From Candidatus Omnitrophota bacterium (GTDB lineage: Bacteria > Omnitrophota > Gorgyraeia > Velamenicoccales > JABMQK01), in assembly GCA_028711115.1 (NCBI GenBank), contig JAQTSV010000001.1, positions 1,432,928 to 1,496,927 of the forward strand: a stretch of 64,000 bases of DNA, written 5' to 3'. How positions within the stretch are numbered: position 1 is the stretch's first letter; every line of letters begins with the position of its first letter. Below the pieces are notes generated by a model. The model did not search any database, was not told the DNA's origin, and saw nothing but the letters and a program-made list of their open reading frames with translations. Below are positions 44,994 to 64,000 of this stretch, piece by piece. The position numbers were made by a program, and so were the translations under genes.

Positions 44994-45447
44994 TTTCCTC
45001 CTTCTGTGAGCTGTCTATATCAGCTATAATAATTAATTATAAACTCATAGATTAAAAGACTTCCCTAATAAAAAAGATTTGAAAAAGTCTATCATAACTG
45101 GCAAGAATAATCAAGCGAATTATGTTATATTTTCCAAACCTTCTCTATTAGGGATTATCGGGATTAAGCTCGTCGCTGTCTTAAAGGATATCAGCTGGTA
45201 TAGCAGACTGCCTCGTAAGACACTTGCCTTAGTGATATTTACTACCAAATTTACCGTGGCTATTTGGATAAAGACAACTGACTATAAAACTTCTCTTATT
45301 GATTGGCCCTATATGTAGAGATACGCAGCCCCTCAGGCGATTTCTCTGCGTTCACATAAACTCTACAAATCTAACCTTACCAACACCTTCTGTCTTCTCT
45401 TAAACAACTAAAATAGTGATTTAGAGGTTAGAACAGGTGGGTAATTA

Positions 45448-45837
45448 TTATTGTCTGAGCATCTTCAAAACTCTTGAAAATGCAATCAGCCGTGGGCAAT
45501 CGAAAACAACGCCTGTCCTACAATTTTCCGCACCAACCTTCTGTGACCAAACTACTCTTCCCTTTAAGTTGATAGGCTCAAAACCATCTGAGACGTCTAT
45601 CCACATTTCTAAGGGAGTTCTGGGCTCCAGCTCTTGTTCTGTCTCAATGCCGACCCCTCCGGCACCGATATCTGTGCATTTGCCTTCGCCCCTTCTGCCG
45701 ACATTTAGGTTGCGAAAACGAGTCGGAAAATTCACTCTAAATCTACTGAACATGCGTTGTTCTTTCTGCGTGTCAGTCTTTTTAGAATCACTGTCTTCCC
45801 GTGGCACTTCATTAGATTTAAAGCGGGGGTATATCAT
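45448..45837 (-). CDS. PilZ domain protein (putative c-di-GMP receptor)
   Basis: The start was moved to MIYPRFK because AAAGGAGGTGaaaaaATG precedes it. RxxxR (QRMFSRFR) and D-x-S/G-x-x-G (DIGAGGVGI) PilZ motifs are present. Confidence 0.6.
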   Translation of the reverse strand: MIYPRFKSNEVPREDSDSKKTDTQKEQRMFSRFRVNFPTRFRNLNVGRRGEGKCTDIGAGGVGIETEQELEPRTPLEMWIDVSDGFEPINLKGRVVWSQKVGAENCRTGVVFDCPRLIAFSRVLKMLRQ

Positions 45838-46182: not shown

Positions 46183-49100
46183 TTACCTGGGATAACCAAG
46201 TAATTCCTCATTTATCGGCCTTGCTGGCGCCATAATAAAGCCATCAAATCCCAAACCGTTTCTTTCCAAACCAATAATTCCTAATCTGTTGGAAAAATTA
46301 AACCCGGGCTTTCTCAATCTGTTAGCCAATGGCGAGGAGGCGGAAATATTTTTAGTTAAAAATACGTAACTTATTTGCGTGGCTGTCTTGGACTCAACTA
46401 TTCTGGTCTTTCCCACAAAAGGCCTTAAGGCATTTTCCAGATTTTGGATAGTCATTGTAGGTGCTATATTAAATATAGTATGGACTACTGTCGCGCCACG
46501 ATTAAGATGATCTGCAATAAAATTAACCACAGCATCAAAATGCATCTGGTCAGCTTCCGTCCATAGCAAAGGAATAGTGGAAAGATAAACGAGATCATAT
46601 TTCTTACGGCTGGTATTTCCTAAAATAATATCTTCTTGCTCAATTTGAAGTCTACCATCTCTTATTTTTTTCGCAATCTGTCTCCTTCTTTCTTCAGCTA
46701 AAAGAAAACCGTAAGAATAAGCAATATCTTCCCGAATATATCGGCGAGCCACCGGGTCAATAATAAAATCATCAACAATTCTCTGGAATATTCCCAGAAA
46801 TTCTTCTGCTTTATTATCCAAAATAGAACCAACAACGTCTTGGGTATATTTAACCTGGTCAGGATTAATATCGATTGCTTGGACAAAACCCGCTTTCTCC
46901 AAGAATAAAAATGGAATCGCAACAGTCCCTACAGTTAATATCCGATCATCTGCGCTTATCTCTAGCTCATCTATTATTTCCTGCGGCGTCTCCATTTGCG
47001 GCACCCAAGTAAAAGAAAAAGGCAGCATTTCTTGTATTTGGTGAATCGCATTATAAATTACATCTTTGCGGAATACAGCCGCGGTTTGCAGTTGAGCGGC
47101 CATATAAACTCCCATCATTATCGCTGTATAGATTTCATCACTAAGCAATCTTAAATCAAAAACCTGCATAAAATCTGGGGCTATAACTATTAATCCTTCG
47201 GGACCGTAATTTATAGCGGTTTCAATCCAATTTTCTACCATTCTAGCAGTAAGCCGGTCTCCTTCCATTTCCTTAAATCCGGGTATTTCTTGACGGAAGG
47301 TGTCTAATAGTTCTTGAGCTGTAGGTTTATCGCTTAAAACTGGCGAGGAGGCAGAGGGCTTTATCCGCTCGCTAACATCAAAGAAATCTCTTCTGACCAA
47401 AACTTGACTTTTTGAGCTCTCTACAATAATATCAGCCTGTTTAATCTGGCTTCTTACGATAGGAGCCTCTGTATGCTGAAGCTCTATATTCTTCCAAATG
47501 GCTTCTTGCAGAGTATAACCACGCTCTCTCATATCGCGTTGAATTTGTCTTTCAAAACAAATATCAAATGATTCATCCATGTATATCTTGATATCCAATA
47601 AATCTTTTAACTGCTCTAGGGCATAGGCGTATTGTCCCTCAATAATAACTATATCTAATTGATTGGGATCAATAAGCTCTCCTTGTCCAATTTCACCGCT
47701 TGAAGGTATATAAATAGCTGGCCTAAATGTTTGGTGTTCCTGTAAATTACGGATATGCTCTTCTAATAAATCTAAATTTAATTTATCTAATCCCCGAAGA
47801 TTTTTAGCGCGTCTTTCTGCACGGGATTTCAGATAAGCATCTATTCTCATGATGAGAACGTGCAGTCTTTTATCTTTCATAAACAATCTTCTCAATTCTT
47901 CCGCCATCGTGGTTTTACCTGCTCCAGCTTCACCAGTAATACCCACGAATAATAAATGACCTTTCTTTTGTTTTTGAAGAAGCAAATGCTCTATTTGTCT
48001 TGCTACGGGCAAGACTACATCTGTTACTCTTTGATATTCCTCACTGATTTCTGAAAATAGAGACGGATAATGAGGAACAATAATTTCATAACCGCTATGA
48101 AAATAGAAATATGAATCGAAAGTTTCCCTATCAATCTCATCTTGATCTCTTGCTTCAATAAGTCTCTTGGTTAGCTTTTGTATTGCGGCCATAGGGTCAT
48201 CATTGATTGCCTTGGACAAAGACATAACTTTTCCATGCCATTTAATGAGCGCCTCGCCATCTAGATTTTTAAGACTTTGTTTAAGTAATTTATCAATGTT
48301 ATCCACCGGCGAGGAGGCGGGGGCTGCCGGGTTTTCATCTCCGGAAACACTTGACTTTTCTGTTATCAACTCTTCTAAAATCTGTCGTTTTTGCCTAAAG
48401 ATATTGTTTTTAAAATAATGTTTCTTATTAACAAAATCAAAAATCTCCCGAAGCTCTTCAGAGTTAAAATAATTGAAGAATTCTCTAAATAACTTATTCC
48501 TCACAAGAGAAAACAGAACTTTTAATGCTCGTTCATTTCTTTTCATTCCCTCTTTTGCCATATTGTCTCGGAATATCAAAACAAGATCTGTCAATCTTCT
48601 ATTTCGGATAAGAAATGAAGTAATAAAAGCCTCCCGCTCAGGGGTTTTTGTTTCTAATTTAATTATTATTAGAATATGGACGGATCGAGGATTAAATTGC
48701 GAAGTAATTAAATCATTCATATATCTCACCGTTGTGCCTGTATTAAAAAGGTCGTCGAATAAAATAATATTCAAATCGCTCAAGTCAACACCTGGAGGAA
48801 AATATTGCTTTTGTTGTTCTATCTTTTCTCTTCGCTTTTCCTGAGACGGAATACCAGAATAAACAGCATAAGATGGTTTCTGGGCATATGAAGAAATATA
48901 TAAAATGCCTAAATCTTGGGCAATCTGTTTAGCCAATTCCCCCGCCGCTGTCAAAGTGTCCCTATTGGGGGACCCTGTAATAATGACCCAACGGACAGGA
49001 TCTCGTTCTATCTCTTCTCCATAGACTTCTTTAATTTTCCTTATAATAAGTTGCCTAAAATATTGTTCCGCTTGACGTGAACGAAACTTAAAGCCTGAAA

Positions 49101-52100
49101 ACATTTCCAAAAGTTCGGATTGCGACGATATATTTTCATCATTTACAAAGAATATATATTCCTCTCTTGGTGCCGTCACAGCTTGGAGCGGCGAGGAGGC
49201 GGTAGCGCCGGATATAGATATCCTTCTGGCAATATCTTCTATCGCCGATTCAATTTGCGATAATAATCGCGGGTTGGTGAAATACTGTTTTAATGTCGAG
49301 GTAAACTCGATTTCTTCATAGCCTTTATTTAAATCTCTGTTTAACGATTCTTTTAATTCCGCTACAGTAATATAGTTTACCTGTGCGACTGCCAATATGC
49401 CGCGTTCTCTTATACGCCTGTTTATTTCATCGGCAGCCAATGAAACAACAATTAGATATAAATTGCTGTTCTCTCTGTTATTTAGCTGACTCTGGTAATA
49501 ATACGCACCGTCTGTACCATAACCTTCGGCGTCAGGAGATATATCGGGCCTGCCTATTTTTCTGGAATCAATATTAATTCTCGTGGGCTCAAGCATCATA
49601 TCCTTTCTCATTATCGCCACTTCGTCCTCCGCCTCCGATAAAATCGTAGACATCTCATCAATAACCAAAGGAACGTGGCCGGCAATCGAAATATCCCATT
49701 TGTCGGGGGAAGAGCCCACGTGTTCCTTGCCGCCTCTTTTCTGCAGAAGAATTTCTCCTTTTGGATTTATTACAAAAACGTGCACTGTCCTGTGCCAATC
49801 ACCGTCCACATGCACAGCTCTTCTTTGTTTAAATAAACCCGTCGCCAAGCCTTGTTCGTCCAGTAATTCCAAATAAGCCCAAACTCTGACTTTGCCGCCT
49901 TCGTCGTATTTTAAGCGGCTCAAGGCCTCGCCCAATTCTTCTTCGCTTGTATTTAACCCTTGGCACATATCAACTTTAGAAACAACAATTCTCCCCAATT
50001 CCAACTTATAATCATCGGGCAAAGTTGCGACTGCTTTGGCTTCTTTAATCTCCATTAAATATCTGATTAACTCAACCGGATTATTCCTAAAATAATTTAT
50101 ACGTTCTTCATAGGAATTCCTGTTCCCCACCGGCGAGGAGGCGGAAGGCAAATAAATACCCTCAGGAGTCAATTTCACAACACCAAAAAAGACTTCACTG
50201 CTAATGGTGCATCCCGGATGAACCGGTAAACATCTACAGTCAAGCATATCGCTTTCTAACCCTGCTTTCCTTAATAAAGGATCCCAGCATCCATTATAAA
50301 AATCCTTGCTAAAGACAGCAAATCCACTTGGCTTTAGGTGATTATAAAGGTCATTTAAAATAGGCTGCATTTTGCTGGTATGGATGTTATATCGCGGGTT
50401 GTAAACTTGCTCGCTTGTCGGTTCAGGGCAGTGCCACATAATAACATTATAATCCATATCTAATCCTTCAATTCCATCGTGCAGAAATACCCTTGTATTA
50501 TCTACCAAGCCCAACCTTTTAAGATTGTAACGTGTAAGCCAAATGCATTTTTCGTCTATGTCAATAGCGTCGACTCTGGCTCCTTTTAACCTAGCAGCGA
50601 TAGTATCTAAGCCGTTACCGCAACCGATAACCAAAACCTTGTCCCCTGGTTTTACAAAATTAGCTTTCCCCATAGCCAAAACCATACGCATACACTCGTA
50701 TTTGCGTATCTCGCTTATATAGGGCTGTGTTTTTGTCGAGTAAATTCCCGGATAATTATAAATTTGATAATTTTCGCCAAAAATCGTCACATTGATCAAC
50801 CATAGGTTGTCAGCATTAAAACCTTCGAATTCTGCATCTTCACCATTCACTGATTCTGTATTCAATCCAGCGAGAGATGGGTCTGAAATGGAAAGATTTG
50901 TTAATCCCAACACCGGCGAGGAGGCGGATTCCTCGAATAATTCTGGAATCTTTTCCCCAAGCAAACCAAGAACTCTCTCGTTGTCAGCAAATATAATTCC
51001 GAGGCGTTCTCCGCCGATTTTTCTTAATTCTAGCGATAGTTTGTTTCTCTCCAAAGAACCCATAAAACCTTCAAAATATTCAGAGCCAATAGCTAGCCTT
51101 AACGAATCATCGCTCAAATACTCGCCCATACCGTTAGCCCAAACCATATACCATAATATGGCCGCAGCAACAGTATGGCAGGCGTGTTCGTTGGATTCAG
51201 ATTCCGTAAGGAGATTGTTTTCGGTAACGCAGACATTAAACATGTTCGCTGTCAAATCAGGAGAAATGTTAAATAACGCTGTTTGCAGACCGCCATGCCA
51301 TCCCCTCGCCTCATTCATAATACGAAATGTAATGCGGTGATTGACAAAATAACATGCTGTTAGCAAGTCACATGCGCTGCAGTAAGGATCCCAAACAATA
51401 TACATAAGTATGTCGTGTGCGGAAACATCTGGTTTATCAAAATGTTCCAAAATTTCTTTTGCTTTATCTAAATGTTTTTGCGAAGGCACCGGCCATTTCC
51501 ATACTCCGTTTTGCTTCCAATGAATATCCATATATCTTTCCGCATCAAATTCCTCCACCGGCGAGGAGGCGACTTCTCTATCAACGATTTCAAAACCTAT
51601 TACACAACCCAAACCGCCTCCGCCAGCCGGTAAAATCTCAATTGGCGAAAGCAGTTCTACAAGTCTATCTGACTTAACGCCTCTTTCGAGTAAAAGCGTT
51701 TTTGTCCTGTGAGCATTATTTATAACAATAATGAAATCGCTGCCATCTGGTATTTTGCTTAAGCAAGCCACATTAAGATAGGCTTCTTCTTCTGGTATTA
51801 TGACTAAATCTTGCCATAATCCTTGTTCTGTTAACAGGCGCTCAAATTCAGGATGTTTTTTAACTTCCTGATAATATATGGGGTCAATTATAATAAGAGG
51901 CCTTCCCGTAGTTACGCAGCCTCCAGGAATAATTTCCATAACAGTATTTAGATGCCTATTTTGTAAAAATATTTCTCTGCCTCCGGGCAATCTTAAAGTA
52001 ACATAGCCGGAAGGTAACTGATAAAATGATAGATCGGTAAATGAATTCCTTAATATATCTACCGCTTCTTCATCAACGGAATCGGCAAATACCATAAAAG

Positions 52101-58100: not shown

Positions 58101-61100
58101 TATGCAGCCATTGCCAAGATAAAACCAAGAATAAGCCGGCTGCGCCGACGTAAATAAGCGGCAAAAATCTCTTGTATAATTGGCGTGCGGTAACAAACAA
58201 TGATGGCCTGGGCGGAAATTGAGCATCCATTGAATTTCTTATTTGAATTAGGGCTTTGTAGTAATACGTACTTGACTCTTTAGAGAGCCTGATTAATTCT
58301 CTGTAGTAATCTTCCAATACATCCGTCAAAAAGGGATTATCGTGGACAGAACCGTAAAGTTCGTCCATTTCCTGGCTTGTCCCGTCTAGTTCTTCTTCAA
58401 TAAGCATAAGCGATGTATCAAAGCTATGGGAGTTTTTGCCTAAATATTCACTATCTTCAGTCAAAAGCCGCTCTAATAAATATAAAACTCTATTAGAAAT
58501 ATCTAAGCCGTAAGGAACGGTTACAGTAATTCTTAAGTTAATACTCTGCTCTCCTCGAATAAGGCTCAACGCCTCTTCTGTCTTATTTTCACTTTTGAGA
58601 TTCAAAAGATTACCGTTAAGGTAAATCGTTATATCGACTTCAGTATATCCTTCAATAACTTTTACCATCTTGCCAAGATTCAGCAGCGAGTCCGAATCTA
58701 TCTTGGAAGCCAATACGATATTCTTTTCGACAAAGGCGGGTTTAAACCGAACCACCTTGGTGCGGCTGTCTGCGGCGAGCGGCGAAGAGGTGGCATCATT
58801 AATAAAAGGCCTGAAGGTCTGTTTCTGATGAATGATATCAACGATGGCCGACTGCCAATAGGGAGCGATAGACCCTGGCGTTAATATAAAAGCGCTAGCA
58901 CCTAAAATCTGTTCAAGTATGAATTGGTTTATTTTGCTTTGCTCAACACTCAAAAATAATTCTTCGCTTAAATGCGTTACGCCAAATCGTTTCTGCAATA
59001 AATCCCTTGCCCGTATATAGCCATATTTTCCTGGATTATATTCATCGACTAAAATCCTATCTGCATATGCCTTATCATGCTGAACCCTGGTAGGATCAAT
59101 AAGCAGAATCGGCCTGTTTTCATAATAAAAAACAATCCAGACGTGCGCAAAAGGAACACCCGCCTCTTCTGTAAAACCGTACTCAACTTCAAATGTGGTT
59201 TGGGGATAATATTTCCCTTCTCTGTTCAACACATCCATAACATTCCTTGGTTGCGGATTGAATTCATAACAGAAAAGCGAACACAGCGCACAACCAAGTA
59301 TGCAGGCAAAGTCAAAGCATATCTGTCCTTGCGCAACAGCTTCTTCATTCCTGTGTGTAAACTTTGGCGGAATCTTTGCGACATTGCGTCTGACTATCTC
59401 CCAGATACGCTTTGCATTCTCATCGCACAAGAATTCTTTTATACTTGCTACTGATTTTTCCTGTATCGGCGAGGAGGCACCAGAATCAACTTCCTCTGGT
59501 AGTTTAAGATTTGCGATTTCGCCTAACGAGGTCAGTAAACTACAGGTGGGCGAGACAGGTTGTAATGATGACCTGCCGTTACGATGTATACGACTACGCG
59601 ATGACGGTTCAACAGCTAGTGCGCGTATTAAATGGGCTGCACTTGCAGTGTCAAAGGTCAACGTTATATTAGGATCAAGACCGAGCTGCACGGTAAAAAG
59701 ACGAATTATCAATATAATATCCCTACGTAACAGCCGAAAATAGGTAGACTGAAGATTGCCATCAAGGTCGCTAAAAGAAAGTTTTTCTGAAAGGGCGCTA
59801 ATTACTCCCTTTTTATAAAAATAACAACCTATATATGCAGGATCGTATAATTCAATTTCAATTGAATCTCTTCTAGATATATAATGAATATGGCCGCGGA
59901 TGCTCATTTTATAACCTTCTATGCCCAGGTCTTTATGATTGACTTTTCCTATGGCAAAATACGACCCTTCTTTTCCTGCAGTAACGAATATGCTAAAAGG
60001 AACCGATGTGGATTGTGATTCAAGGCATTGAATCAATTGTATCCGTATCTGCCCAACATCAAATCCCATGAAATGAAGATAACCAACATTTGTGTTGTTT
60101 TTTAGCGAATCAATTACAGATTTCCGCGTCACCGGCGAGGAAGCGGAATTTTCCACCGGCGAAGAGACAGCTATATCGCCAAAGGCGCTATTTCCTTCCC
60201 CGAGAACAAAAGCAAATAAATGCTTCTTTTCTACCCTTTCCCTATGTATAACTAAATCATATTGCGGCGTATATCCATATCTTTGTTTGTGCGCTGCCAT
60301 CCTGTATTCAATAACGTCATCAAGTGCTCTTTCTTCGGCTTTTTCATAAATTTCACGCCGTAATTCGTCTCGCGCCCTGATATTAATCTTGATATCAAAA
60401 CCCAGATATTTCCTATGAGAAAAACTTCCAACCCAAGGTTCTGTTTTTAAGGCTTCAAATCCCTCCAATACAACCACGTCATATTTTCTTGAATCAGCAA
60501 GATTAATAATTTCTTGTGCCGCAGCTTCGTGATCCCACTCATCTATCCATTCTGCGGGTCGTTCTGACCACTCCGCTGCGCCAATCACTATGGATGGGCT
60601 CTTAAATTCCTGCCTGAAGAAATCATTTAACCGTACAATAATATAGGTAAACGGTAAATCAAAATGGGTTTCCCAATTATCCAAGAACGTGGATTTGCCG
60701 GTTGCTGCGTCGCCGTCGACAACAACCAAGATAGTCCTTTTCTTATGGACTTTTGATATCCTGTCATAAATAGCGCCTATGGTTTTACGGACTGCATTTC
60801 TAGTAGAACTTGTGCCGCGATGCTCTATCTCCATAAATGAGGTGCGCGACAATTTAACGGTTGCTTTCATTCTAAAGAATTTTTCGTTGTTTAATAATGT
60901 CGTTATTGATTTACGGCGCGCGTCGTCATTCTGCAATCTCTTAAGAAGGCGGCTATGGACGACAAATGTTGACTGTAAAGGATGAATAAGATGGTCAGCT
61001 TCATCGGAGAAAATCATTTCGCGAAGATTCTGAAAATCATTGCTGTAGTGTTTCTCTAAATATGCTGGTGGCCGCACGACATACCAAGAAAGAAATACTT

Positions 61101-64000
61101 TGCCTTCTTTAGTTAAAGCAACATATCCTTTTTGCCCATGAATCGTTAGAGGGAATTCCCTTACACAAGAAACACCAAACCATTCGACTAAATCCTGGAT
61201 ATTTTCCTGCCATTGCTTAACAAAACCGAACTGCAATGCCGCAATAAGCGATTCCTCTTCTGTCCTGTAAAGGCCTTCAGACTCCAATCCTTCTGGCTGA
61301 AGAAAACTTATTTCGAAAGTTCCGTAAGCGTTATTAAATTTCACCCTGACATTTAAATTAAGCGCCCCCATACCGGTTTGCCTAGTCACTTTGGCAGGAA
61401 AAGCCGCAGCGTAATCTAGCAGATGCCATTTGCGGTATTGAGTATTAACTCCGTATAATTCAAGCGGCGAGCTGGAGGCGGAGCCAAGATGTTTTTTAAG
61501 CCAGTATTGCCTGACTTCGTCGGGATATTGGCTTAAAGCAAGTTTCATCGTCTCTATCAAATTCTTGTCATGAATAGATACGCTATATTCAATGAAAGTT
61601 ATAAAGTAATCTGCATCAATATAGCCGCCTTTCGGCTCTGCCTGGAACCTCCAGCTTTTATCAGCAAGTAATTCAGGCATTAATTCATCGAAATGAAGAT
61701 TTATAAAATCCATTACTCTTTTTTCGTGCTCTGCCACAAGCGCATCAAATAAACCTTCTCCCCTGCGGCTGCCTTTATCAAAATATTTCATTCTCTTAAA
61801 GTATCGATGCGGAATATTATCAAAACCTATTGCCACAACAATATCTTTTATTGCAACGGCCAAATGATCTTTTTGACATAAATTAGTTGCATTCTCCAAA
61901 CACCTAAATGCCGCATCTAAAGTGGACAACGGATTCTTCTCAGATTTATAGTAAGAAGCTATGTGGCGTAGCGCTTTGGATAACGCATCCTTCTGTTTTT
62001 CAGTGGTGGCCTCAATAAATAATTTGCCTATATTTCTAAAAAGTTTTGCGGCTTCCTGAGGTTCCAATGCCATGTCTAAAATTACCTCATATATGCACTG
62101 GCTCAATTTTTCTTTGGCTTCGGCGTCTTTCTCGCTTTCGTAACGCCTTAGCAAATCTTTTAACAGGCTGCCTTCTACTTCTACCGCATCGCGGAGAAGT
62201 ATTGACGCTGTTAACGACTCCTCCTCATCCTCGGCGGTTGCAATCGTCTTCAATAATTTAGGATAATCCTTAGCCGCCTCCGGAGGTGTCTTTATAGAGT
62301 GGAAATAATTTAATGCCGGCGGGACAACTTTTGCTTTCACCTTCTCAGGGAATCCTCTAACAGCCGCATCTACGGCATCTAAAAGATTTTCCCGCTGATA
62401 TTTTGTTTGGGCGACCTTAATCCCCCTCCTAAACAAAGTGAATACCTTCGGCGATAAACATTCAGAGGCATCTGCCATAAGGTTAAGGACTAAATAACTT
62501 AGTCGGTCTTTGCGAGACCTGTTTCTTTCCAGAAAATACATGATGCAGATTTCTCTGTAAAATTGCGGGCGTTTTTCCACAATTTTTCTTAAGCTCTCCA
62601 GACAAGAATCTTTTTCTGCTTCATTCTCCGATGTTAAATAATTCGTAAGCAATTCATATTCAAGGCCGCCTCTTACCTGCCTGGGGATTAATTTTATGGC
62701 ATAAACAACATTACTCGCGCCGCCAATTCCTGCCCTGACAAAATATTCATACAAACCAACTATGGTTTTACCATCTAAAACCTTCAGCCGCCGATTTATC
62801 TTTTTCCTGCTTAATCCCGTAACATTTCCTTTTTCGCTAATCCTTACTCTCGGTATCGAAGCGATAATTCCCGAGACAATCTCATACCCCCGAGGATTAT
62901 TTTCCAGTAATTCCTTCCATTCAATCTGCTTTATGCCAGATTTGTTTATCATTTCCGTCAATTCTTCCAAAGTCCTGACTGTCCTGAAAGAAACTCTCGG
63001 TTCAACTAAACCCAAATCCTCCAGCATAAATACGACAACCTTCTTACCTAAATTATCTTCTCTCTCGGTGTGATAAACGGCGTAATATTGATAAAGCCCG
63101 CTTGCCACTTCGCCATTTAAGAATTCTCTCGGTTTTCTAAAATGGGCTTCTTCTAATTTTGTCAGATCATCGCTTATGCCTTCTTCCTGGGCAATAAATT
63201 TCACAGCCTCTGCAACTATATTTTTCCCTTGGGGATTATCTCTTAACAATATCTTCCAGGGTATTTGTTTATACACGCCTCTTTTTAGTAAATCCGTTAA
63301 TTCGCTAAGCGTCGTAATATCCTTTGCGGATTTCTGTTGTTCAATCAATCCTGCATCTTCCAGCATTAATATAATTGCCGGCTTACCGCTATCAGCTGTT
63401 TGCCTGTTATAGAAATCAACCAAGCCGGTCAATTTGCGGTTTCCCAACCAAACTCTGTTCTCCCTGAAGTGATCGTCTGCTAACTTCATAAAATCATCGA
63501 AAGTCAATGGCTCATCCTGGACTTTGCCTGTAATTTCCCGCGTCAGCTTGATAATTATTTCTTTTACTATCTCGCTGGCTTGCGGGTTGTGCTCAAAAAG
63601 CAGCGCCCACCTGAGCGTCTTTCTTAAACGAAATAGATCTACAAATTCAGAATACGTTCTAACCTGACTTATCCGGCTGGAAAATGAGATTGGGCTGGAG
63701 GCACCAGCTAAATTATCAAAGTTGTTTTCCTCCTGGTGCCGACGTCCTAAGCGAAGCGAAGGGCTGGAGGAAGTTTTGCTGCGGGAAGAACGTGGTTTTT
63801 TCAAGTTGAGTATTATTCTGACTTCTGTTCCGTGTGCGTCATTATCAGTCTCTGATACATCCAAACTTCTCACACCTTCTTCGTCCTGAGTGAATACAGA
63901 GTGCTTTCCTTTATGATAAGTTTCATAGGTAATTTCTATGCCGAATTGTCTTGCCCGTTCTAGAACATATAGTTTGACTGTTCGTCCATGGCCGCCCAGA
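46183..64000 (-). CDS. Giant multi-module protein, more than 5,930 aa, N-terminus outside the window
   Basis: Uninterrupted frame from the TAA at 46183-46185 to base 64000. The track start at 63873 is just the first GTG. In-frame translation of 63874-64000 (LGGHGRTVKLYVLERARQFGIEITYETYHKGKHSVFTQDEEG) has no stop. Modules and junctions are listed separately below. Confidence 0.85.
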   Translation of the reverse strand, partial: LGGHGRTVKLYVLERARQFGIEITYETYHKGKHSVFTQDEEGVRSLDVSETDNDAHGTEVRIILNLKKPRSSRSKTSSSPSLRLGRRHQEENNFDNLAGASSPISFSSRISQVRTYSEFVDLFRLRKTLRWALLFEHNPQASEIVKEIIIKLTREITGKVQDEPLTFDDFMKLADDHFRENRVWLGNRKLTGLVDFYNRQTADSGKPAIILMLEDAGLIEQQKSAKDITTLSELTDLLKRGVYKQIPWKILLRDNPQGKNIVAEAVKFIAQEEGISDDLTKLEEAHFRKPREFLNGEVASGLYQYYAVYHTEREDNLGKKVVVFMLEDLGLVEPRVSFRTVRTLEELTEMINKSGIKQIEWKELLENNPRGYEIVSGIIASIPRVRISEKGNVTGLSRKKINRRLKVLDGKTIVGLYEYFVRAGIGGASNVVYAIKLIPRQVRGGLEYELLTNYLTSENEAEKDSCLESLRKIVEKRPQFYREICIMYFLERNRSRKDRLSYLVLNLMADASECLSPKVFTLFRRGIKVAQTKYQRENLLDAVDAAVRGFPEKVKAKVVPPALNYFHSIKTPPEAAKDYPKLLKTIATAEDEEESLTASILLRDAVEVEGSLLKDLLRRYESEKDAEAKEKLSQCIYEVILDMALEPQEAAKLFRNIGKLFIEATTEKQKDALSKALRHIASYYKSEKNPLSTLDAAFRCLENATNLCQKDHLAVAIKDIVVAIGFDNIPHRYFKRMKYFDKGSRRGEGLFDALVAEHEKRVMDFINLHFDELMPELLADKSWRFQAEPKGGYIDADYFITFIEYSVSIHDKNLIETMKLALSQYPDEVRQYWLKKHLGSASSSPLELYGVNTQYRKWHLLDYAAAFPAKVTRQTGMGALNLNVRVKFNNAYGTFEISFLQPEGLESEGLYRTEEESLIAALQFGFVKQWQENIQDLVEWFGVSCVREFPLTIHGQKGYVALTKEGKVFLSWYVVRPPAYLEKHYSNDFQNLREMIFSDEADHLIHPLQSTFVVHSRLLKRLQNDDARRKSITTLLNNEKFFRMKATVKLSRTSFMEIEHRGTSSTRNAVRKTIGAIYDRISKVHKKRTILVVVDGDAATGKSTFLDNWETHFDLPFTYIIVRLNDFFRQEFKSPSIVIGAAEWSERPAEWIDEWDHEAAAQEIINLADSRKYDVVVLEGFEALKTEPWVGSFSHRKYLGFDIKINIRARDELRREIYEKAEERALDDVIEYRMAAHKQRYGYTPQYDLVIHRERVEKKHLFAFVLGEGNSAFGDIAVSSPVENSASSPVTRKSVIDSLKNNTNVGYLHFMGFDVGQIRIQLIQCLESQSTSVPFSIFVTAGKEGSYFAIGKVNHKDLGIEGYKMSIRGHIHYISRRDSIEIELYDPAYIGCYFYKKGVISALSEKLSFSDLDGNLQSTYFRLLRRDIILIIRLFTVQLGLDPNITLTFDTASAAHLIRALAVEPSSRSRIHRNGRSSLQPVSPTCSLLTSLGEIANLKLPEEVDSGASSPIQEKSVASIKEFLCDENAKRIWEIVRRNVAKIPPKFTHRNEEAVAQGQICFDFACILGCALCSLFCYEFNPQPRNVMDVLNREGKYYPQTTFEVEYGFTEEAGVPFAHVWIVFYYENRPILLIDPTRVQHDKAYADRILVDEYNPGKYGYIRARDLLQKRFGVTHLSEELFLSVEQSKINQFILEQILGASAFILTPGSIAPYWQSAIVDIIHQKQTFRPFINDATSSPLAADSRTKVVRFKPAFVEKNIVLASKIDSDSLLNLGKMVKVIEGYTEVDITIYLNGNLLNLKSENKTEEALSLIRGEQSINLRITVTVPYGLDISNRVLYLLERLLTEDSEYLGKNSHSFDTSLMLIEEELDGTSQEMDELYGSVHDNPFLTDVLEDYYRELIRLSKESSTYYYKALIQIRNSMDAQFPPRPSLFVTARQLYKRFLPLIYVGAAGLFLVLSWQWLHKIKWSKIAFRDPMAPKTILILLVSAILYIIFANIKDRHTHYGDSAKKPSRSHEKTKDKSSSPINWPTDKLVGGGLNLRYLRRVCEVVNGKAAQDNRREKTALLIGSAADISTAYFATNASRYIFVEKLPFHADLHTVSQRYQQKLLEHYGMVAMMMMIKGEMVDIFNSPSRIDEDGIVTLYLMEKCLVGFVSSDLLEICKGIWPFLREELKIIARGNIDLATREGNPQAFELNFMVEGRERSLIFVEKTDGLEINAYAKYLEMSQGVDFIIIKAGDVYIEDGKFLLPARVIEQFLRPGGFVIVDSDRAIKRASSVRDLLVSVEDRTLLELERQGALFGYNGPFYNEPKEGAYILQKKGFSSSPVEGSAHYTETLIIKDSSCNEMSVQMQSFVNSFEANLMENGFSESEAADVALCVSEAVNNAIYHREGGDIKIIYGIKGREFFFSVENNGEFNVAGLNDPTLDENLFKTHGRGVLIIKNLINQIGGESQFVCENGRTKVVIAYPAGSASSSPLVSLGVSSSLRASGERSRTASSPISNNLKWRVKIIVILSFVLGPVIFLLPIWAVMESAWRLYLLLLATSPLLSDICTVFFLSAIGDFIAQKITHNGNPAKNIKFNFRRMFNFVTIMVLTDGIVLHYWLAFLNILGTSILSNVFKIILQSVMFAPFAYLVYYPGMVFLSKSSLNELFSKDAARQAKESLKVNFMPTCKKDILFWGLTVDPFAFIVLPFIVGYFNLSPSLINNFRLAILNMTDILWNTYISLRAHRKEITPTINKTASSPVAGSEINIFDLEEMKQLFAGFNKRDLRLILRNTAAIEPTLGCSVRCWFCAARPGKLRARFTKEALFYLFGNYARYLVLSGLYFDNEPFDHPDYEEIFNRYQIDNMDFVSMITCTSYPQGQENRIMEFIKKGNLVRISVTETNIPRLIRDGIVKMSGNGVLEKGNDFRRYSNLTIVSRLENKGRNGSDDKLRRVGGASRRGDLAAESIDTSLAVVLNCNGFTNIVPVKPCQADHFANSLKVLISPDKINQPINTGMTLREIFERSIVLKAQYDSSKDKIMVFNNGNVFLIYIGKDVSANSKVAGMRRVPFAFMFLRLKYLAWDLLYWEQKTLKLLFPDSSSSGKNSQISASSPVEECEENIFLSQSMPVGHKRALLRLGDAIVIQITEGCFNPCAHCCVPSRMCRFINQMRVNTIEELLLQINSVGWRQSTVNPVQFYLGSDPFNHPKLLEIIFLCYKVLGQYHFVLNTHGISEYESQVLIREFYGRGVSYLRQLKLDGIKISVIVSIHPFYPDVIEVVEEVCGGEGYSEKFDAQIIETLRQKGIIKKYIEHYRKIFKVLLELTSIISVEIILSFIYDDKAFPFSKKIVDILRAELEGAYPELKSKTKVGISSLIYSGRAVNIFRTLKVEPPVSADKQTEINRPEQKIVFKPNGSIELVIDSNIPTHSDIRRIYAKLNPEEFKRFITAIVRLLKNEFSQRDIQDCFKEAQTKYFSLNGVFYVPLFVEESVIEQIKGMELQGDEVLSTETCREIAAKISHLPVALALLDELGMEVQIHKGITYQFFKTRFRISKNGTASSPVEINWEPYRLAISYLPRLIRNRLSRGIVRLTPVETTLADTGSLKGVKLYEAPLSEYFYSNLRSAIKKVDKKLFNEWKQLIARFANEERQFSEKFQGNIILVKEKRKTIAYCIFRIIFSEGVGELLFIAVKNDNRNQGIGRCLYTYLINKLRNNGIEKLELTIACDNESSLRLIERLRKEGLLSFEREEFPYSTPHYWNYHIQLRDETQDLAPTENRKTEYASSPVGKKGKDNDLSVYGGRIEQIPPQKKLSAVVGRNNSWDVNLSNYADLFMAIESRMNDVVQREQLKALVRERLTMLAGSVGMIDSAFEQWQQRDSIWKSEKLRKGFIPVYFARLFFSLAEQAPGTEFSIIENTLRQNKINFRVLSEEDKKQWGNSVEWPQDRMVISPDEKWVIWNVSRFDDAISAGEQGAVISGIAKTPFMVFADSVDEEAVDILRNSFTDLSFYQLPSGYVTLRLPGGREIFLQNRHLNTVMEIIPGGCVTTGRPLIIIDPIYYQEVKKHPEFERLLTEQGLWQDLVIIPEEEAYLNVACLSKIPDGSDFIIVINNAHRTKTLLLERGVKSDRLVELLSPIEILPAGGGGLGCVIGFEIVDREVASSPVEEFDAERYMDIHWKQNGVWKWPVPSQKHLDKAKEILEHFDKPDVSAHDILMYIVWDPYCSACDLLTACYFVNHRITFRIMNEARGWHGGLQTALFNISPDLTANMFNVCVTENNLLTESESNEHACHTVAAAILWYMVWANGMGEYLSDDSLRLAIGSEYFEGFMGSLERNKLSLELRKIGGERLGIIFADNERVLGLLGEKIPELFEESASSPVLGLTNLSISDPSLAGLNTESVNGEDAEFEGFNADNLWLINVTIFGENYQIYNYPGIYSTKTQPYISEIRKYECMRMVLAMGKANFVKPGDKVLVIGCGNGLDTIAARLKGARVDAIDIDEKCIWLTRYNLKRLGLVDNTRVFLHDGIEGLDMDYNVIMWHCPEPTSEQVYNPRYNIHTSKMQPILNDLYNHLKPSGFAVFSKDFYNGCWDPLLRKAGLESDMLDCRCLPVHPGCTISSEVFFGVVKLTPEGIYLPSASSPVGNRNSYEERINYFRNNPVELIRYLMEIKEAKAVATLPDDYKLELGRIVVSKVDMCQGLNTSEEELGEALSRLKYDEGGKVRVWAYLELLDEQGLATGLFKQRRAVHVDGDWHRTVHVFVINPKGEILLQKRGGKEHVGSSPDKWDISIAGHVPLVIDEMSTILSEAEDEVAIMRKDMMLEPTRINIDSRKIGRPDISPDAEGYGTDGAYYYQSQLNNRENSNLYLIVVSLAADEINRRIRERGILAVAQVNYITVAELKESLNRDLNKGYEEIEFTSTLKQYFTNPRLLSQIESAIEDIARRISISGATASSPLQAVTAPREEYIFFVNDENISSQSELLEMFSGFKFRSRQAEQYFRQLIIRKIKEVYGEEIERDPVRWVIITGSPNRDTLTAAGELAKQIAQDLGILYISSYAQKPSYAVYSGIPSQEKRREKIEQQKQYFPPGVDLSDLNIILFDDLFNTGTTVRYMNDLITSQFNPRSVHILIIIKLETKTPEREAFITSFLIRNRRLTDLVLIFRDNMAKEGMKRNERALKVLFSLVRNKLFREFFNYFNSEELREIFDFVNKKHYFKNNIFRQKRQILEELITEKSSVSGDENPAAPASSPVDNIDKLLKQSLKNLDGEALIKWHGKVMSLSKAINDDPMAAIQKLTKRLIEARDQDEIDRETFDSYFYFHSGYEIIVPHYPSLFSEISEEYQRVTDVVLPVARQIEHLLLQKQKKGHLLFVGITGEAGAGKTTMAEELRRLFMKDKRLHVLIMRIDAYLKSRAERRAKNLRGLDKLNLDLLEEHIRNLQEHQTFRPAIYIPSSGEIGQGELIDPNQLDIVIIEGQYAYALEQLKDLLDIKIYMDESFDICFERQIQRDMRERGYTLQEAIWKNIELQHTEAPIVRSQIKQADIIVESSKSQVLVRRDFFDVSERIKPSASSPVLSDKPTAQELLDTFRQEIPGFKEMEGDRLTARMVENWIETAINYGPEGLIVIAPDFMQVFDLRLLSDEIYTAIMMGVYMAAQLQTAAVFRKDVIYNAIHQIQEMLPFSFTWVPQMETPQEIIDELEISADDRILTVGTVAIPFLFLEKAGFVQAIDINPDQVKYTQDVVGSILDNKAEEFLGIFQRIVDDFIIDPVARRYIREDIAYSYGFLLAEERRRQIAKKIRDGRLQIEQEDIILGNTSRKKYDLVYLSTIPLLWTEADQMHFDAVVNFIADHLNRGATVVHTIFNIAPTMTIQNLENALRPFVGKTRIVESKTATQISYVFLTKNISASSPLANRLRKPGFNFSNRLGIIGLERNGLGFDGFIMAPARPINEELLGYPR
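46327..46341 (-). repeat. Junction J21 (A-S-S-P-L), last junction before a 47-aa C-terminal tail
   Basis: Plus strand CAATGGCGAGGAGGC. Exact 11-mer. Confidence 0.9.
46342..47337 (-). other. Giant-ORF module M18: Rossmann/SAM-binding-like domain (DUF3419/BtaA-like?)
   Basis: DRILTVGTVAIPF...VQAIDINPDQVKY resembles the SAM-binding start of BtaA-like proteins. Weak. Confidence 0.3.
47338..47352 (-). repeat. Junction J20 (A-S-S-P-V)
   Basis: Plus strand AACTGGCGAGGAGGC. Exact 11-mer. Confidence 0.9.
47353..48303 (-). other. Giant-ORF module M17: uridine kinase/phosphoribulokinase-family P-loop kinase
   Basis: LLFVGITGEAGAGKTT (about 47910-47950), IVIIEGQYA, and RQIQRDMRERGYTLQEAI (Udk-like RD..eRG segment). 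Confidence 0.65.
48304..48318 (-). repeat. Junction J19 (A-S-S-P-V)
   Basis: Plus strand CACCGGCGAGGAGGC followed by GG. Exact 17-mer copy. Confidence 0.95.
48319..49185 (-). other. Giant-ORF module M16: type I phosphoribosyltransferase domain
   Basis: PRPP-binding motif NIILFDDLFNTGTTV at about 48728-48772. Confidence 0.6.
49186..49200 (-). repeat. Junction J18 (A-S-S-P-L)
   Basis: Plus strand GAGCGGCGAGGAGGC. Exact 11-mer. Confidence 0.9.
49201..50127 (-). other. Giant-ORF module M15: Nudix-fold domain with partly degenerate Nudix box
   Basis: HRTVHVFVINPKGEILLQKR...PDKWDISIAGHV fits the Nudix/IDI-like fold. The box GHVPLVIDEMSTILSEAEDEVAI keeps only some of the consensus acidic residues. 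Confidence 0.5.
50128..50142 (-). repeat. Junction J17 (A-S-S-P-V)
   Basis: Plus strand CACCGGCGAGGAGGC followed by GG. Exact 17-mer copy. Confidence 0.95.
50143..50910 (-). other. Giant-ORF module M14: class I SAM-dependent methyltransferase
   Basis: Motif I KVLVIGCGNGLD (about 50605-50640) and motif II VDAIDID. HCPEP occupies the position of the N/D-PP-Y/F motif. Confidence 0.65.
50911..50925 (-). repeat. Junction J16 (A-S-S-P-V)
   Basis: Plus strand CACCGGCGAGGAGGC followed by GG. Exact 17-mer copy. Confidence 0.95.
50926..51555 (-). other. Giant-ORF module M13: unknown (Cys/His-rich)
   Basis: About 210 aa. Contains DPYCSACDLLTACYF and NEHACHTVAAAILWY. No family recognised. Confidence 0.3.
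51556..51570 (-). repeat. Junction J15 (A-S-S-P-V)
   Basis: Plus strand CACCGGCGAGGAGGC. Exact 15-mer copy. Confidence 0.95.
51571..52686 (-). other. Giant-ORF module M12: guanidino-group-modifying-enzyme-like (arginine deiminase/amidinotransferase/DDAH fold)
   Basis: NRHLNTVM resembles the HLDTV motif. The C-terminal EEEAYLNVACL...IVINNAHRTKTLLLERGV...PAGGGGLGCVIGF resembles the GGG-x-x-C catalytic-Cys end of the superfamily. Confidence 0.4.
52687..52701 (-). repeat. Junction J14 (A-S-S-P-V)
   Basis: Plus strand CACCGGCGAGGAGGC. Exact 15-mer copy. Confidence 0.95.
52702..53358 (-). other. Giant-ORF module M11: GNAT N-acetyltransferase domain
   Basis: Acetyl-CoA motif A, FIAVKNDNRNQGIGRCLYTYLINKL, at about 52930-52990. 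Confidence 0.65.
53359..53373 (-). repeat. Junction J13 (A-S-S-P-V)
   Basis: Plus strand CACCGGCGAGGAGGC followed by GG. Exact 17-mer copy. Confidence 0.95.
53374..54699 (-). other. Giant-ORF module M10: radical SAM domain 2
   Basis: CX3CX2C motif in IQITEGCFNPCAHCCVP, encoded at about 54561-54600. Confidence 0.6.
54700..54714 (-). repeat. Junction J12 (A-S-S-P-V)
   Basis: Plus strand CACCGGCGAGGAGGC followed by GG. Exact 17-mer copy. Confidence 0.95.
54715..55755 (-). other. Giant-ORF module M9: radical SAM domain 1
   Basis: CX3CX2C motif in AIEPTLGCSVRCWFCAA, encoded at about 55611-55640. Confidence 0.6.
55756..55770 (-). repeat. Junction J11 (A-S-S-P-V)
   Basis: Plus strand AACTGGCGAGGAGGC. 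Exact 11-mer. Confidence 0.9.
55771..56490 (-). other. Giant-ORF module M8: Mpv17/PMP22-family integral membrane domain
   Basis: LSAIGDFIAQKI resembles MPV17 GLGDIISQQL. QSVMFAPFAY resembles DQGGFAPCF. The C-terminal ILWNTYISLRAHRK resembles MPV17 VIWNSYLSWKAHR. Multiple TM helices. Confidence 0.65.
56491..56505 (-). repeat. Junction J10 (A-S-S-P-I)
   Basis: Plus strand TATCGGCGAAGAGGC. Confidence 0.85.
56560..56577 (-). repeat. Junction J9 (A-S-S-S-P-L)
   Basis: Plus strand GAGGGGCGAGGAGCTGGC. Followed after 18 codons by J10. Confidence 0.8.
56578..57009 (-). other. Giant-ORF module M7: RsbW/SpoIIAB-like HATPase (anti-sigma serine kinase-type) domain
   Basis: N-box VSEAVNNAIYH. A G1-like FSVENNGEF and a G2-like KTHGRGVLIIKNL are followed by GRTKVVIAY. 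Confidence 0.6.
57010..57024 (-). repeat. Junction J8 (S-S-S-P-V)
   Basis: Plus strand CACCGGCGAGGAGGA. Confidence 0.85.
57025..57912 (-). other. Giant-ORF module M6: possible degenerate class I SAM-methyltransferase fold
   Basis: TALLIGSAADIS (motif-I-like) and FLRPGGFVIVD (post-III-like). Weak. Confidence 0.3.
57913..57927 (-). repeat. Junction J7 (S-S-S-P-I)
   Basis: Plus strand TATCGGCGAGGAAGA. Confidence 0.8.
57928..58776 (-). other. Giant-ORF module M5: unknown soluble region + two-TM hairpin
   Basis: Hydrophobic helices FLPLIYVGAAGLFLVLSWQWL and TILILLVSAILYIIFANI lie near the C-terminal end of the module (about 57990-58170). Confidence 0.5.
58777..58794 (-). repeat. Junction J6 (A-T-S-S-P-L)
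   Basis: Plus strand GAGCGGCGAAGAGGTGGC. Confidence 0.75.
58795..59463 (-). other. Giant-ORF module M4: transglutaminase-like / papain-fold cysteine protease-like domain
   Basis: Cys-His-Asp arrangement. GQICFDFACILGCAL (about 59290-59335) is followed by PFAHVWIVFYYENRPILLIDPT (about 59085-59150). This matches the C..F ... HAW.E ... DPT transglutaminase-core pattern. Confidence 0.5.
59464..59478 (-). repeat. Junction J5 (A-S-S-P-I)
   Basis: Plus strand TATCGGCGAGGAGGC. Contains the exact 11-mer GGCGAGGAGGC. Confidence 0.9.
59479..60129 (-). other. Giant-ORF module M3: unknown
   Basis: About 215 aa between junctions, no motif recognised. Confidence 0.3.
60130..60144 (-). repeat. Junction J4b (A-S-S-P-V)
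   Basis: Plus strand CACCGGCGAGGAAGC. Confidence 0.85.
60154..60168 (-). repeat. Junction J4a (V-S-S-P-V)
   Basis: Plus strand CACCGGCGAAGAGAC. Separated from J4b by only 3 codons. Confidence 0.75.
60169..61461 (-). other. Giant-ORF module M2: unknown N-half + P-loop NTPase (uridine kinase/PRK-like)
   Basis: Walker A ILVVVDGDAATGKSTF (about 60690-60735) and Walker-B-like YDVVVLEGFEAL. Confidence 0.45.
61462..61479 (-). repeat. Junction J3 (A-S-S-S-P-L)
   Basis: Plus strand AAGCGGCGAGCTGGAGGC, with one extra Ser codon. Confidence 0.8.
61480..63687 (-). other. Giant-ORF module M1: three tandem ~112-aa repeats, then a ~400-aa alpha-helical (HEAT/ARM-like) region
   Basis: Repeats at aa 71-182, 183-295 and 296-407 share W..LL..NP.G..IV ... 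G.....GL..YY ... V.MLED.GL.E. No catalytic motif seen. Confidence 0.5.
63688..63702 (-). repeat. Junction J2 (A-S-S-P-I)
   Basis: Plus strand GATTGGGCTGGAGGC. Peptide motif kept, codons diverged (AGC, CCA). Confidence 0.75.
63757..63774 (-). repeat. Junction J1 (T-S-S-S-P-S)
   Basis: Plus strand CGAAGGGCTGGAGGAAGT. Peptide motif kept, codons diverged. Confidence 0.7.
63775..64000 (-). other. Giant-ORF module M0 (partial): possible C-terminal part of an HATPase-like domain
   Basis: ...FTQDEEGVRSLDVSETDNDAHGTEVRIILNL resembles the G2-box end of module M7. It is followed by the same double junction with an 18-codon spacer as M7. Confidence 0.3.

Follow-up and report, generated by a model that had tools for sequence, protein, structure and literature searches.

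The 64,000-nucleotide stretch analysed here (the window) comes from a Candidatus Omnitrophota bacterium (assembly GCA_028711115.1, contig JAQTSV010000001.1, positions 1,432,928 to 1,496,927), and positions 46183-64000 of it are taken up by a single giant open reading frame (ORF) on the minus strand. In this ORF, mutually unrelated modules are separated by a short peptide centred on Ser-Ser-Pro, which we counted at 22 junctions (J1 to J22, from the 5' to the 3' side). From J4 to J22 the junctions are spelled with nearly the same codons, and the last 11 share a common core without any mismatch. Giant relatives keep junction peptides while their codons vary, and this supports selection acting on the junction peptide at the amino-acid level. 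The overall account that we propose, with confidence about evenly divided for and against it, is a recent copying or homogenisation of junctions in an in-frame multi-enzyme array, under selection on the peptide, with older copies decaying.

Junction core and its polarity

On the plus strand, the 11-mer GGCGAGGAGGC was found 12 times, when 0.02 copies are expected by chance. The sites are 46331, 47342, 48308, 49190, 50132, 50915, 51560, 52691, 53363, 54704, 55760 and 59468. Read on the coding strand, the 11-mer is GCC TCC TCG CC, or Ala-Ser-Ser-Pro, and all 12 copies lie at junctions of the one minus-strand ORF. The junctions have the form [A/S/T/V]-S-S-P-[V/L/I/S], the final Ser being found in J1 only. 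At the peptide level, S-S-P is present 23 times in the giant ORF versus 1.1 times in protein shuffles, and once in the 12,885 aa of other window ORFs.

A homogeneous block extends from 46327 to 55770 on the minus strand, like all junctions described below. It comprises J12 to J22, all with GCC TCC TCG CC, together with 10 unrelated modules and a 48-aa tail. Within it, GCC TCC TCG CCG GTG (ASSPV) is found at J13 (54700-54714), J14 (53359-53373), J15 (52687-52701), J16 (51556-51570), J17 (50911-50925), J18 (50128-50142) and J20 (48304-48318). J12 (55756-55770) and J21 (47338-47352) carry the same 15-mer, GCC TCC TCG CCA GTT (ASSPV), J19 (49186-49200) has GCC TCC TCG CCG CTC (ASSPL), CTC being a rare Leu codon, and J22 (46327-46341) has GCC TCC TCG CCA TTG (ASSPL).

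Upstream of 55.8 kb, the sole exact core is that of J6 (59464-59478, GCC TCC TCG CCG ATA). J11 (56491-56505) reads GCC TCT TCG CCG ATA (ASSPI), and a 20-aa spacer (56506-56559) separates it from J10 (56560-56574), where AGC TCC TCG CCC CTC follows a GCC (A-SSSPL). J9 (57010-57024) is TCC TCC TCG CCG GTG (SSSPV) and J8 (57913-57927) is TCT TCC TCG CCG ATA (SSSPI). In J7 (58777-58791), ACC TCT TCG CCG CTC is again preceded by GCC (A-TSSPL). J5 (60130-60144, GCT TCC TCG CCG GTG, ASSPV) lies at a 5-aa gap (spacer 60145-60153) from J4 (60154-60168), which reads GTC TCT TCG CCG GTG after a GCT (A-VSSPV). The remaining three are J3 (61462-61476, TCC AGC TCG CCG CTT after a GCC, A-SSSPL), J2 (63688-63702, GCC TCC AGC CCA ATC, ASSPI), whose second Ser is AGC, the codon form seen in the relative P0007, and J1 (63757-63771, TCC TCC AGC CCT TCG, SSSPS), at a 20-aa spacer (63703-63756) from J2.

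The sequence-only reading of this DNA had reported an exact core in all junctions of 46.3-55.8 kb, and this was confirmed. The core is exact in 11 of 11 consecutive junctions in J12-J22 (46,327-55,770), and in 1 of 11 upstream. If 12 exact cores were distributed over 22 junctions by chance, they would fill the last 11 with a probability of 1.7e-5, and the number of mismatches varies with position (Spearman rho -0.69, p = 4e-4). Polarity of junction identity within the window is real.

What had been taken for the 5' end of the gene is mid-gene. The ORF runs without a stop through 5,938 codons (5,896 from the listed GTG) and is still open at base 64000; its stop codon is at 46183-46185. The whole product, as called in assembly GCA_028716625.1 (contig JAQUPK010000001.1, about 937,310-983,746), to which the window was assigned by an exact match of the neighbouring solute-binding protein, has 15,478 aa, and the called start is about 14 nt from the end of that contig, so that even this call may be truncated. 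The window thus holds the 3' 38% of the giant gene, and the remaining 62% (28.6 kb) lies upstream of it.

Sub-variants of the junction are interleaved rather than contiguous: CCA GTT is shared by J12 and J21, which are 8.4 kb apart, CCG ATA by J6, J8 and J11, and CTC by J7, J10 and J19. This bears on the possibility that modules were added serially near the 3' end, each addition duplicating the neighbouring junction, so that junction age would rise toward the 5' side. The run of 11 exact cores on the 3' side and the rise of mismatches upstream are what such accretion would produce, and the 3' modules have a slightly lower GC content at third codon positions (GC3; 0.341 vs 0.385, p = 0.07). The interleaving of sub-variants speaks against it; a pattern of this kind is less easily obtained by strict serial addition at one end than by copying between non-adjacent junctions, or by modules that take their junctions along when they move. 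The exact core of J6 amid diverged junctions, the absence of polarity in six relatives (see below), and the fact that the window covers 38% of the gene also count against accretion, as does the lack of close homologues of the 3' modules in our searches, which gives no sign of recent capture. We consider it unlikely. As for the direction in which the whole gene would have grown, it cannot be judged from the window, because 62% of the gene lies upstream.

Extent of the shared unit

Conservation at the junctions fades beyond about 5 nt upstream and 15 nt downstream. Nucleotide matches of at least 24 nt are present only at junctions, and the shared islands measure 12-24 nt in otherwise unrelated sequence. 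All junction sites are direct repeats, in frame, without inverted-repeat architecture. Judging from the shared +1 codons (see below) and from the double variant CCA GTT common to J12 and J21, the copies have 15 nt or more in common. Segmental or tandem duplication, and paralogy of the modules, are ruled out by the unconserved flanks and by the lack of mutual similarity between modules; equally conserved flanks, which had been named beforehand as the mark of a simple segmental duplication, were not found.

Short islands of this kind could also arise by gene conversion over short tracts, or by template switching from one junction to another, the modules remaining static and the process being more effective in the 3' block. 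The 12-24 nt islands themselves, the linked double variants common to non-adjacent junctions, and a codon identity far above that of relatives are in line with such a process. We nevertheless hold it to be improbable: there is no flanking homology to initiate tracts, as would be found in concerted evolution, and nothing in it accounts for the restriction to one lineage or one block. In addition, efficient homologous recombination usually requires longer stretches of identity than these islands offer.

Codon pattern at the junctions

Upstream of the block, conservation was supposed to concern the peptide only, with synonymous divergence of the codons. Both points proved overstated. The motif TCYTCGCC is kept in 19 of 19 junctions from J4 to J22, hence in 8 of the 11 upstream junctions, and the rest of that strand has no copy of it. 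At 20 of 22 junctions the second Ser is encoded by TCG, versus a usage of 13% in the gene (P = 3e-16). Recoding with AGC is limited to J1-J3. In J4-J11, the changes are mostly non-synonymous: the codon before S-S-P is replaced (by GTC, ACC, TCC, TCT or AGC), and in J3, J4, J7 and J10 the replaced codon is preceded by GCC or GCT, so that these junctions resemble one-codon insertions. Synonymous changes in J4-J11 amount to TCC>TCT three times, CCG>CCC once and GCC>GCT once. Most upstream variants differ from the consensus by 1-2 substitutions or by one inserted codon.

Pairwise codon identity at the giant-gene junctions was 0.60-0.90, versus 0.18-0.29 expected. For a peptide ASSP, the probability of GCC TCC TCG CCR is 0.0025 per site, and TCC, TCG and GTG all belong to the less used codons of the giant gene (13-16% usage). 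The bias extends to the +1 codon. Among the 12 Val junctions, 10 have GTG (P = 4e-7); the rare CTC is used by 3 of the 6 with Leu (P = 1e-3), and 3 of the 4 with Ile have ATA, the exception being J2 with ATC. An internal control is provided by the one S-S-P outside the junctions (GSSPD, 49705-49713, minus strand), inside the Nudix-like module: it is written TCT TCC CCC, and therefore the tripeptide alone does not dictate the junction codons.

At the amino-acid level, the two blocks differ. All 11 downstream junctions (J12-J22) have Ala as residue -1, versus 4 of 11 upstream, and residue +1 is Val in 8 of 11 versus 3 of 11. It could be, then, that the gradient is functional, junction variants being recognised unequally well as in viral polyproteins. 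Selection on the peptide would keep the sites of the last 10 kb strict ([S/T]-A-S-S-P-V) and those upstream looser (x-S-S-P-[I/L/V]), for instance for an ordered or partial processing. The mostly non-synonymous nature of the block contrast and the smallness of the synonymous contrast between J4-J11 and J12-J22 agree with this. It leaves unexplained the identical synonymous codons (TCC, TCG, CCG, GTG) over 19 sites, relatives have no positional pattern of peptide variants, and the cleavage that it presupposes is itself hypothetical. A functional gradient as the explanation is, in our opinion, very doubtful.

Modules between the junctions

In an all-against-all blastp comparison, the modules were mutually unrelated (best E = 0.04). 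Eight are above the Pfam threshold and represent 7 families: HATPase_c_2, radical SAM (two modules, 27% identical over 104 aa), GNAT, class I methyltransferase, Nudix/IPP-isomerase-like, phosphoribosyltransferase and PRK/uridine kinase. Three others are sub-threshold and 9 have no match. Hydrophobic stretches are visible in M7 and M11, the latter being an Mpv17-like membrane module by a weak Mpv17/PMP22 match. GC3 of the modules (46183-63873) ranges from 0.29 to 0.44, versus 0.445 +/- 0.025 in 21 other large genes of the window (5875-44993). The GC-rich junction core contrasts with this AT-rich background.

Free-standing homologues of M15 and M17 (P0004, P0005, P0002) have their C-termini about 4-20 residues from the junction position. 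In an AlphaFold2 (AF2) model of the C-terminal half of M15, the mean predicted local distance difference test score (pLDDT) was 88, and about 55 in the last 25 residues or so leading into J16. The matching homologue ends and the low-confidence tail before J16 argue that a module is a whole protein and a junction its flexible boundary. A short site reiterated at 22 junctions would thus bound independently folding units, as in a polyprotein, and the junction peptide [S/T]-A-S-S-P-[V/L/I] most likely serves, within a flexible linker between modules, as a site of cleavage or of recognition.

M15 (51568-52689, minus strand) is the module most widely common to other giant proteins, and has no Pfam or PDB sequence match. 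Searched by fold, its AF2 model matched structures of the arginine dihydrolase ArgZ, DDAH, AstB and PAD, which are guanidino-group-modifying enzymes, and a His, an Asp and a C-terminal Cys are invariant. M15 is therefore modelled as an enzyme of the guanidino-group-modifying fold, and not as a protease; this assignment comes from the fold search and has no support at the sequence level.

At the start of M2 (about 62690-63650, minus strand), three consecutive repeats of about 105 aa are visible by eye (...NPQASEIVKEI..., ...NPQGKNIVAEAV..., ...NPRGYEIVSGII...), without family match. The giant gene ends in a 48-aa tail after J22, unlike several relatives, which have a C-terminal module.

Junction peptides in giant relatives

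A full HMMER search among 1.84 billion representatives, with M14-M17 as queries, gave 143 matches, many of them proteins of 2,000-7,600 aa. All three species-genome loci in GTDB that encode an M15-like module belong to metagenome-assembled genomes (MAGs) of Candidatus Omnitrophota. Many of the giant relatives, several of them from Omnitrophota MAGs, have a reiterated junction peptide of their own. R-S-E-[L/I/M]-R is present in 16-25 copies per protein in P0003 (locus L130), P0036 (L006), P0049 (L132) and P0060 (L131), A-S-S-L-G in 24 copies in P0055 (L005), and S-S-P in 8-16 copies per protein in P0007 (L004) and P0016 (L003). Shuffled relatives had at most 8 copies of junction peptides. P0001 (L007) has 5 copies of A-S-S-L-G, which is not above its shuffles (up to 6).

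DNA was fetched for seven relatives, six of which were scored for codon identity and polarity; these are family members, not orthologues. Outside the tandem units of P0007, junction codons vary in all seven. In P0016, for example, the same ASSP peptide sites are written GCA TCG AGC CCC, GCC AGC TCA CCA, ATT AGT TCG CCT and others. Pairwise codon identity in the six was 0.13-0.73, versus 0.18-0.31 expected (four- and six-fold codons), with many positions at expectation and some in moderate excess. The junction peptide is kept with free synonymous codons across the six relatives, as would be expected of a processed polyprotein. The claim of the sequence-only reading that selection acts on the amino-acid motif is well borne out here, since the peptides (ASSP, ASSLG, RSE[LIM]R) are retained under varied codons. 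Polarity was not seen in the six family members scored, where rho ranged from -0.32 to +0.10 and none was significant.

Relatives have kept the codon boxes with varied third positions: nearly all Ser codons are TCN, and nearly all first Arg codons CGN. Such a look would be expected of old copies of one founding sequence. Near identity of the nucleotides is specific to the giant gene and, as the relatives show, is not required for the junctions to last.

That relatives persist without nucleotide identity also argues against the nucleotide sequence being itself a functional element, be it as an RNA signal that makes translation pause at rare codons, as a sequence bound by an RNA-binding factor, or as the DNA site of a dedicated site-specific recombinase. 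Such a role could explain that conservation at the DNA level is confined to the giant gene and absent from the other 46 kb of the window, as well as the use of the minority codons TCC, TCG and GTG. Yet relatives with the same peptide, and J1-J3, use other codons, and the junctions gave no Rfam match. They have no consistent RNA fold either: the mean z was -0.45 versus -0.09 +/- 1.1 in control windows, and folds differ from site to site. No recombinase recognisable by Pfam was present among the ten downstream ORFs scanned (30.1-45.0 kb), and the repeats are direct only. A nucleotide-level function seems to us highly unlikely.

A metagenome scan with the 17-mer GCCTCCTCGCCGGTGGA gave at least 120 loci, nearly all with a single match, on high-GC contigs (median GC 0.66). 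Among the matches listed, none outside the source loci (L001, L002) had more than 2 copies of the 11-mer core. They were rejected as real junction arrays, and considered chance matches, being single copies in high-GC contigs. Word-indexed protein searches with the 3' 3,206 aa of the giant gene, and separately with M6 and M21+M22, gave no matches, and scans of genome and metagenome contigs with M2 found no relatives.

Paired junctions with short spacers exist in the giant gene (20, 5 and 20 aa for J1-J2, J4-J5 and J10-J11) and in relatives (about 20-45 aa). In P0007, a 20-aa unit of junction plus spacer is repeated about 7 times in tandem, and spacers of P0055 have about 30-45 aa. Paired junctions around a spacer resemble the excised spacer peptides of polyproteins. 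Longer motifs recur about 4 times in other relatives, for instance GPGAMNIDEP in P0032 and HRAKPGxNP in P0041. Among P0001, P0003, P0036, P0037, P0049, P0055 and P0060, several have in common an N-terminal module that follows a signal or transmembrane segment (...IQDAH...EAQ..., ...GGFH...), and several relatives, not all the same ones, share a C-terminal module ending in ..AA. Neither of these shared terminal modules has a Pfam family.

Proposed copying of the junctions

Recent copying or homogenisation would operate as follows. Unrelated enzyme modules, each like a free-standing protein, are strung in one reading frame with a junction peptide between them. Nearly all the junction copies of the window (J4-J22) would descend recently from one sequence, GCC TCC TCG CCG GTG, independently of the peptide. 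Most likely, each insertion, exchange or loss of a module through recombination in the short direct repeats would copy a junction, and such events would never break the reading frame. Polarity would then be a gradient of decay, the 11 copies in the last 9.4 kb being those most recently copied or homogenised. J4-J11 would have accumulated point mutations, and insertions of one codon, at places where they do not disturb the peptide too much, and J1-J3 would be old, or represent a second codon form.

The suggestion of a recent accretion or homogenisation is thus retained as plausible, and we prefer it to a function of the nucleotide sequence. Two parts of it need to be amended: near identity spans J4-J22 and not the 3' half alone, and conversion of the classical type would lack flanking homology.

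Several observations weigh against recent copying. Strictly synonymous sites are changed at about 5 of 32 in J4-J11 versus 3 of 44 in J12-J22, a hand count without statistical test. Polarity rests largely on residue -1, and could reflect a difference in function rather than age. The GC3 difference between upstream and 3' modules makes a weak break at 56 kb (p = 0.07), both values being below the 0.445 of other window genes. Identity over 12-20 bp is short for RecA-dependent recombination. Neither the protein nor the contig searches gave a close orthologue, or a second copy of the junction DNA, that would show gain or loss of a module with breakpoints at junctions, and 62% of the giant gene lies outside the window. 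No recombinase was identified in the ten downstream ORFs scanned, and cleavage of the product is putative. No peptidase family was found in the window modules by Pfam, NCBIfam and PDB sequence searches. Module M6 (58789-59466, minus strand) is a candidate: when it is aligned with segments of P0068 and P0079, its Cys50, His108 and Asp124 are invariant (G-x-C-F ... H-x-W ... L-L-I-D-P), a pattern which we take to resemble that of transglutaminase-like cysteine peptidases; it had no Pfam, NCBIfam or PDB match, and its AF2 model was unusable (pLDDT 41).

A broader proposal would make the multi-enzyme giant genes of Omnitrophota true polyproteins, whose clade-specific junction peptides (ASSP, ASSLG, RSELR) co-evolve with a processing enzyme, and in which the junction DNA serves here, in addition, as a 12-20 nt adapter for the gain, loss or swap of modules in a cassette array that is still being remodelled. 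We regard this combination as doubtful.

Relation to known systems

The giant gene belongs with the giant proteins known from Omnitrophota (bioRxiv 10.64898/2026.06.07.730766; 10.1101/2023.11.21.568195), one class of which has been called "multi-enzyme metabolic cluster" (bioRxiv 10.64898/2026.06.07.730766). Like them, it encodes more than 10,000 aa in a single ORF; many distinct enzyme families in Pfam tile the chain, with no single repeat dominating, hydrophobic modules are interspersed, and several of its relatives come from Omnitrophota MAGs. Unlike those described so far, its modules are bounded by a clade-specific junction motif that is nearly identical in DNA. A text search of these two reports found no description of a reiterated junction peptide, linker or polyprotein. 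It would seem, therefore, that the gene class is known but that its clade-specific junction peptides, and the near DNA identity in the window gene, had not been described. According to West-Roberts et al. (bioRxiv 10.1101/2023.11.21.568195), a domain-wise analysis of such proteins was blocked by the absence of information on where they are cleaved. Junction peptides that match the ends of free-standing homologues are candidate boundaries, by which the question of one chain versus cut products becomes testable. They could be used in proteomics, and for splitting giant proteins in structure prediction.

Viral polyproteins, with the sites of picornavirus 3C or potyvirus NIa, offer a likeness at the peptide level: a short peptide recurs between unrelated units, the motif is lineage-specific, and pairs of sites enclose spacers. 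The window gene differs in being bacterial and chromosomal, in that its cleavage is putative, and in that the sequence searches found no peptidase family in the window modules. To our knowledge, nucleotide identity among cleavage sites is not a described feature of viral polyproteins. MARTX-type toxins, which are effector arrays with an internal cysteine protease, are likewise very large bacterial proteins with unrelated enzymatic modules between cleavage points, cleavage being putative in the window gene. The modules are here metabolic or regulatory rather than toxin-like, and the junction is a strict motif of 4-5 residues. No family of cysteine protease domain was found in Pfam scans of the modules; repeat-containing translocation regions and type I secretion system genes were not noted, no search being aimed at either.

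At the DNA level, recombination at conserved sequences in modular polyketide synthases (PKS) and non-ribosomal peptide synthetases homogenises parts of modules and permits in-frame gain or loss of modules. These are also multi-module giant genes, but PKS modules are paralogous over kilobases, whereas those of the window gene are unrelated and share 12-24 nt. Integron cassettes and shufflons likewise have short DNA repeats between units whose contents are unrelated. The sites of the window gene differ from these in having no attC-like inverted repeats, in being direct and in frame within one ORF, and in that relatives keep the peptide and not the DNA. No recombinase in the scanned downstream ORFs, and no inverted-repeat core or consistent fold at the junctions, associated the gene with either system. 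Near-identical junction DNA here, versus varied DNA in relatives, points to junctions copied very recently or being homogenised, and recombination at junctions, if true, would be a simple route for moving whole enzymes in frame.

Neighbourhood of the giant gene

A second contig, of more than 1 Mb, has the same neighbourhood as the giant gene. The downstream genes encode a PilZ protein, an ABC sugar transporter, glycoside hydrolases and a ROK kinase. The small PilZ-domain gene (45448-45837, minus strand) lies directly downstream of the giant gene, and about 450 nt without a called gene (44994-45447) separate it from the ABC sugar-transporter operon. Within the giant gene, an antisense ORF of 182 aa (50792-51340, plus strand) is probably spurious.

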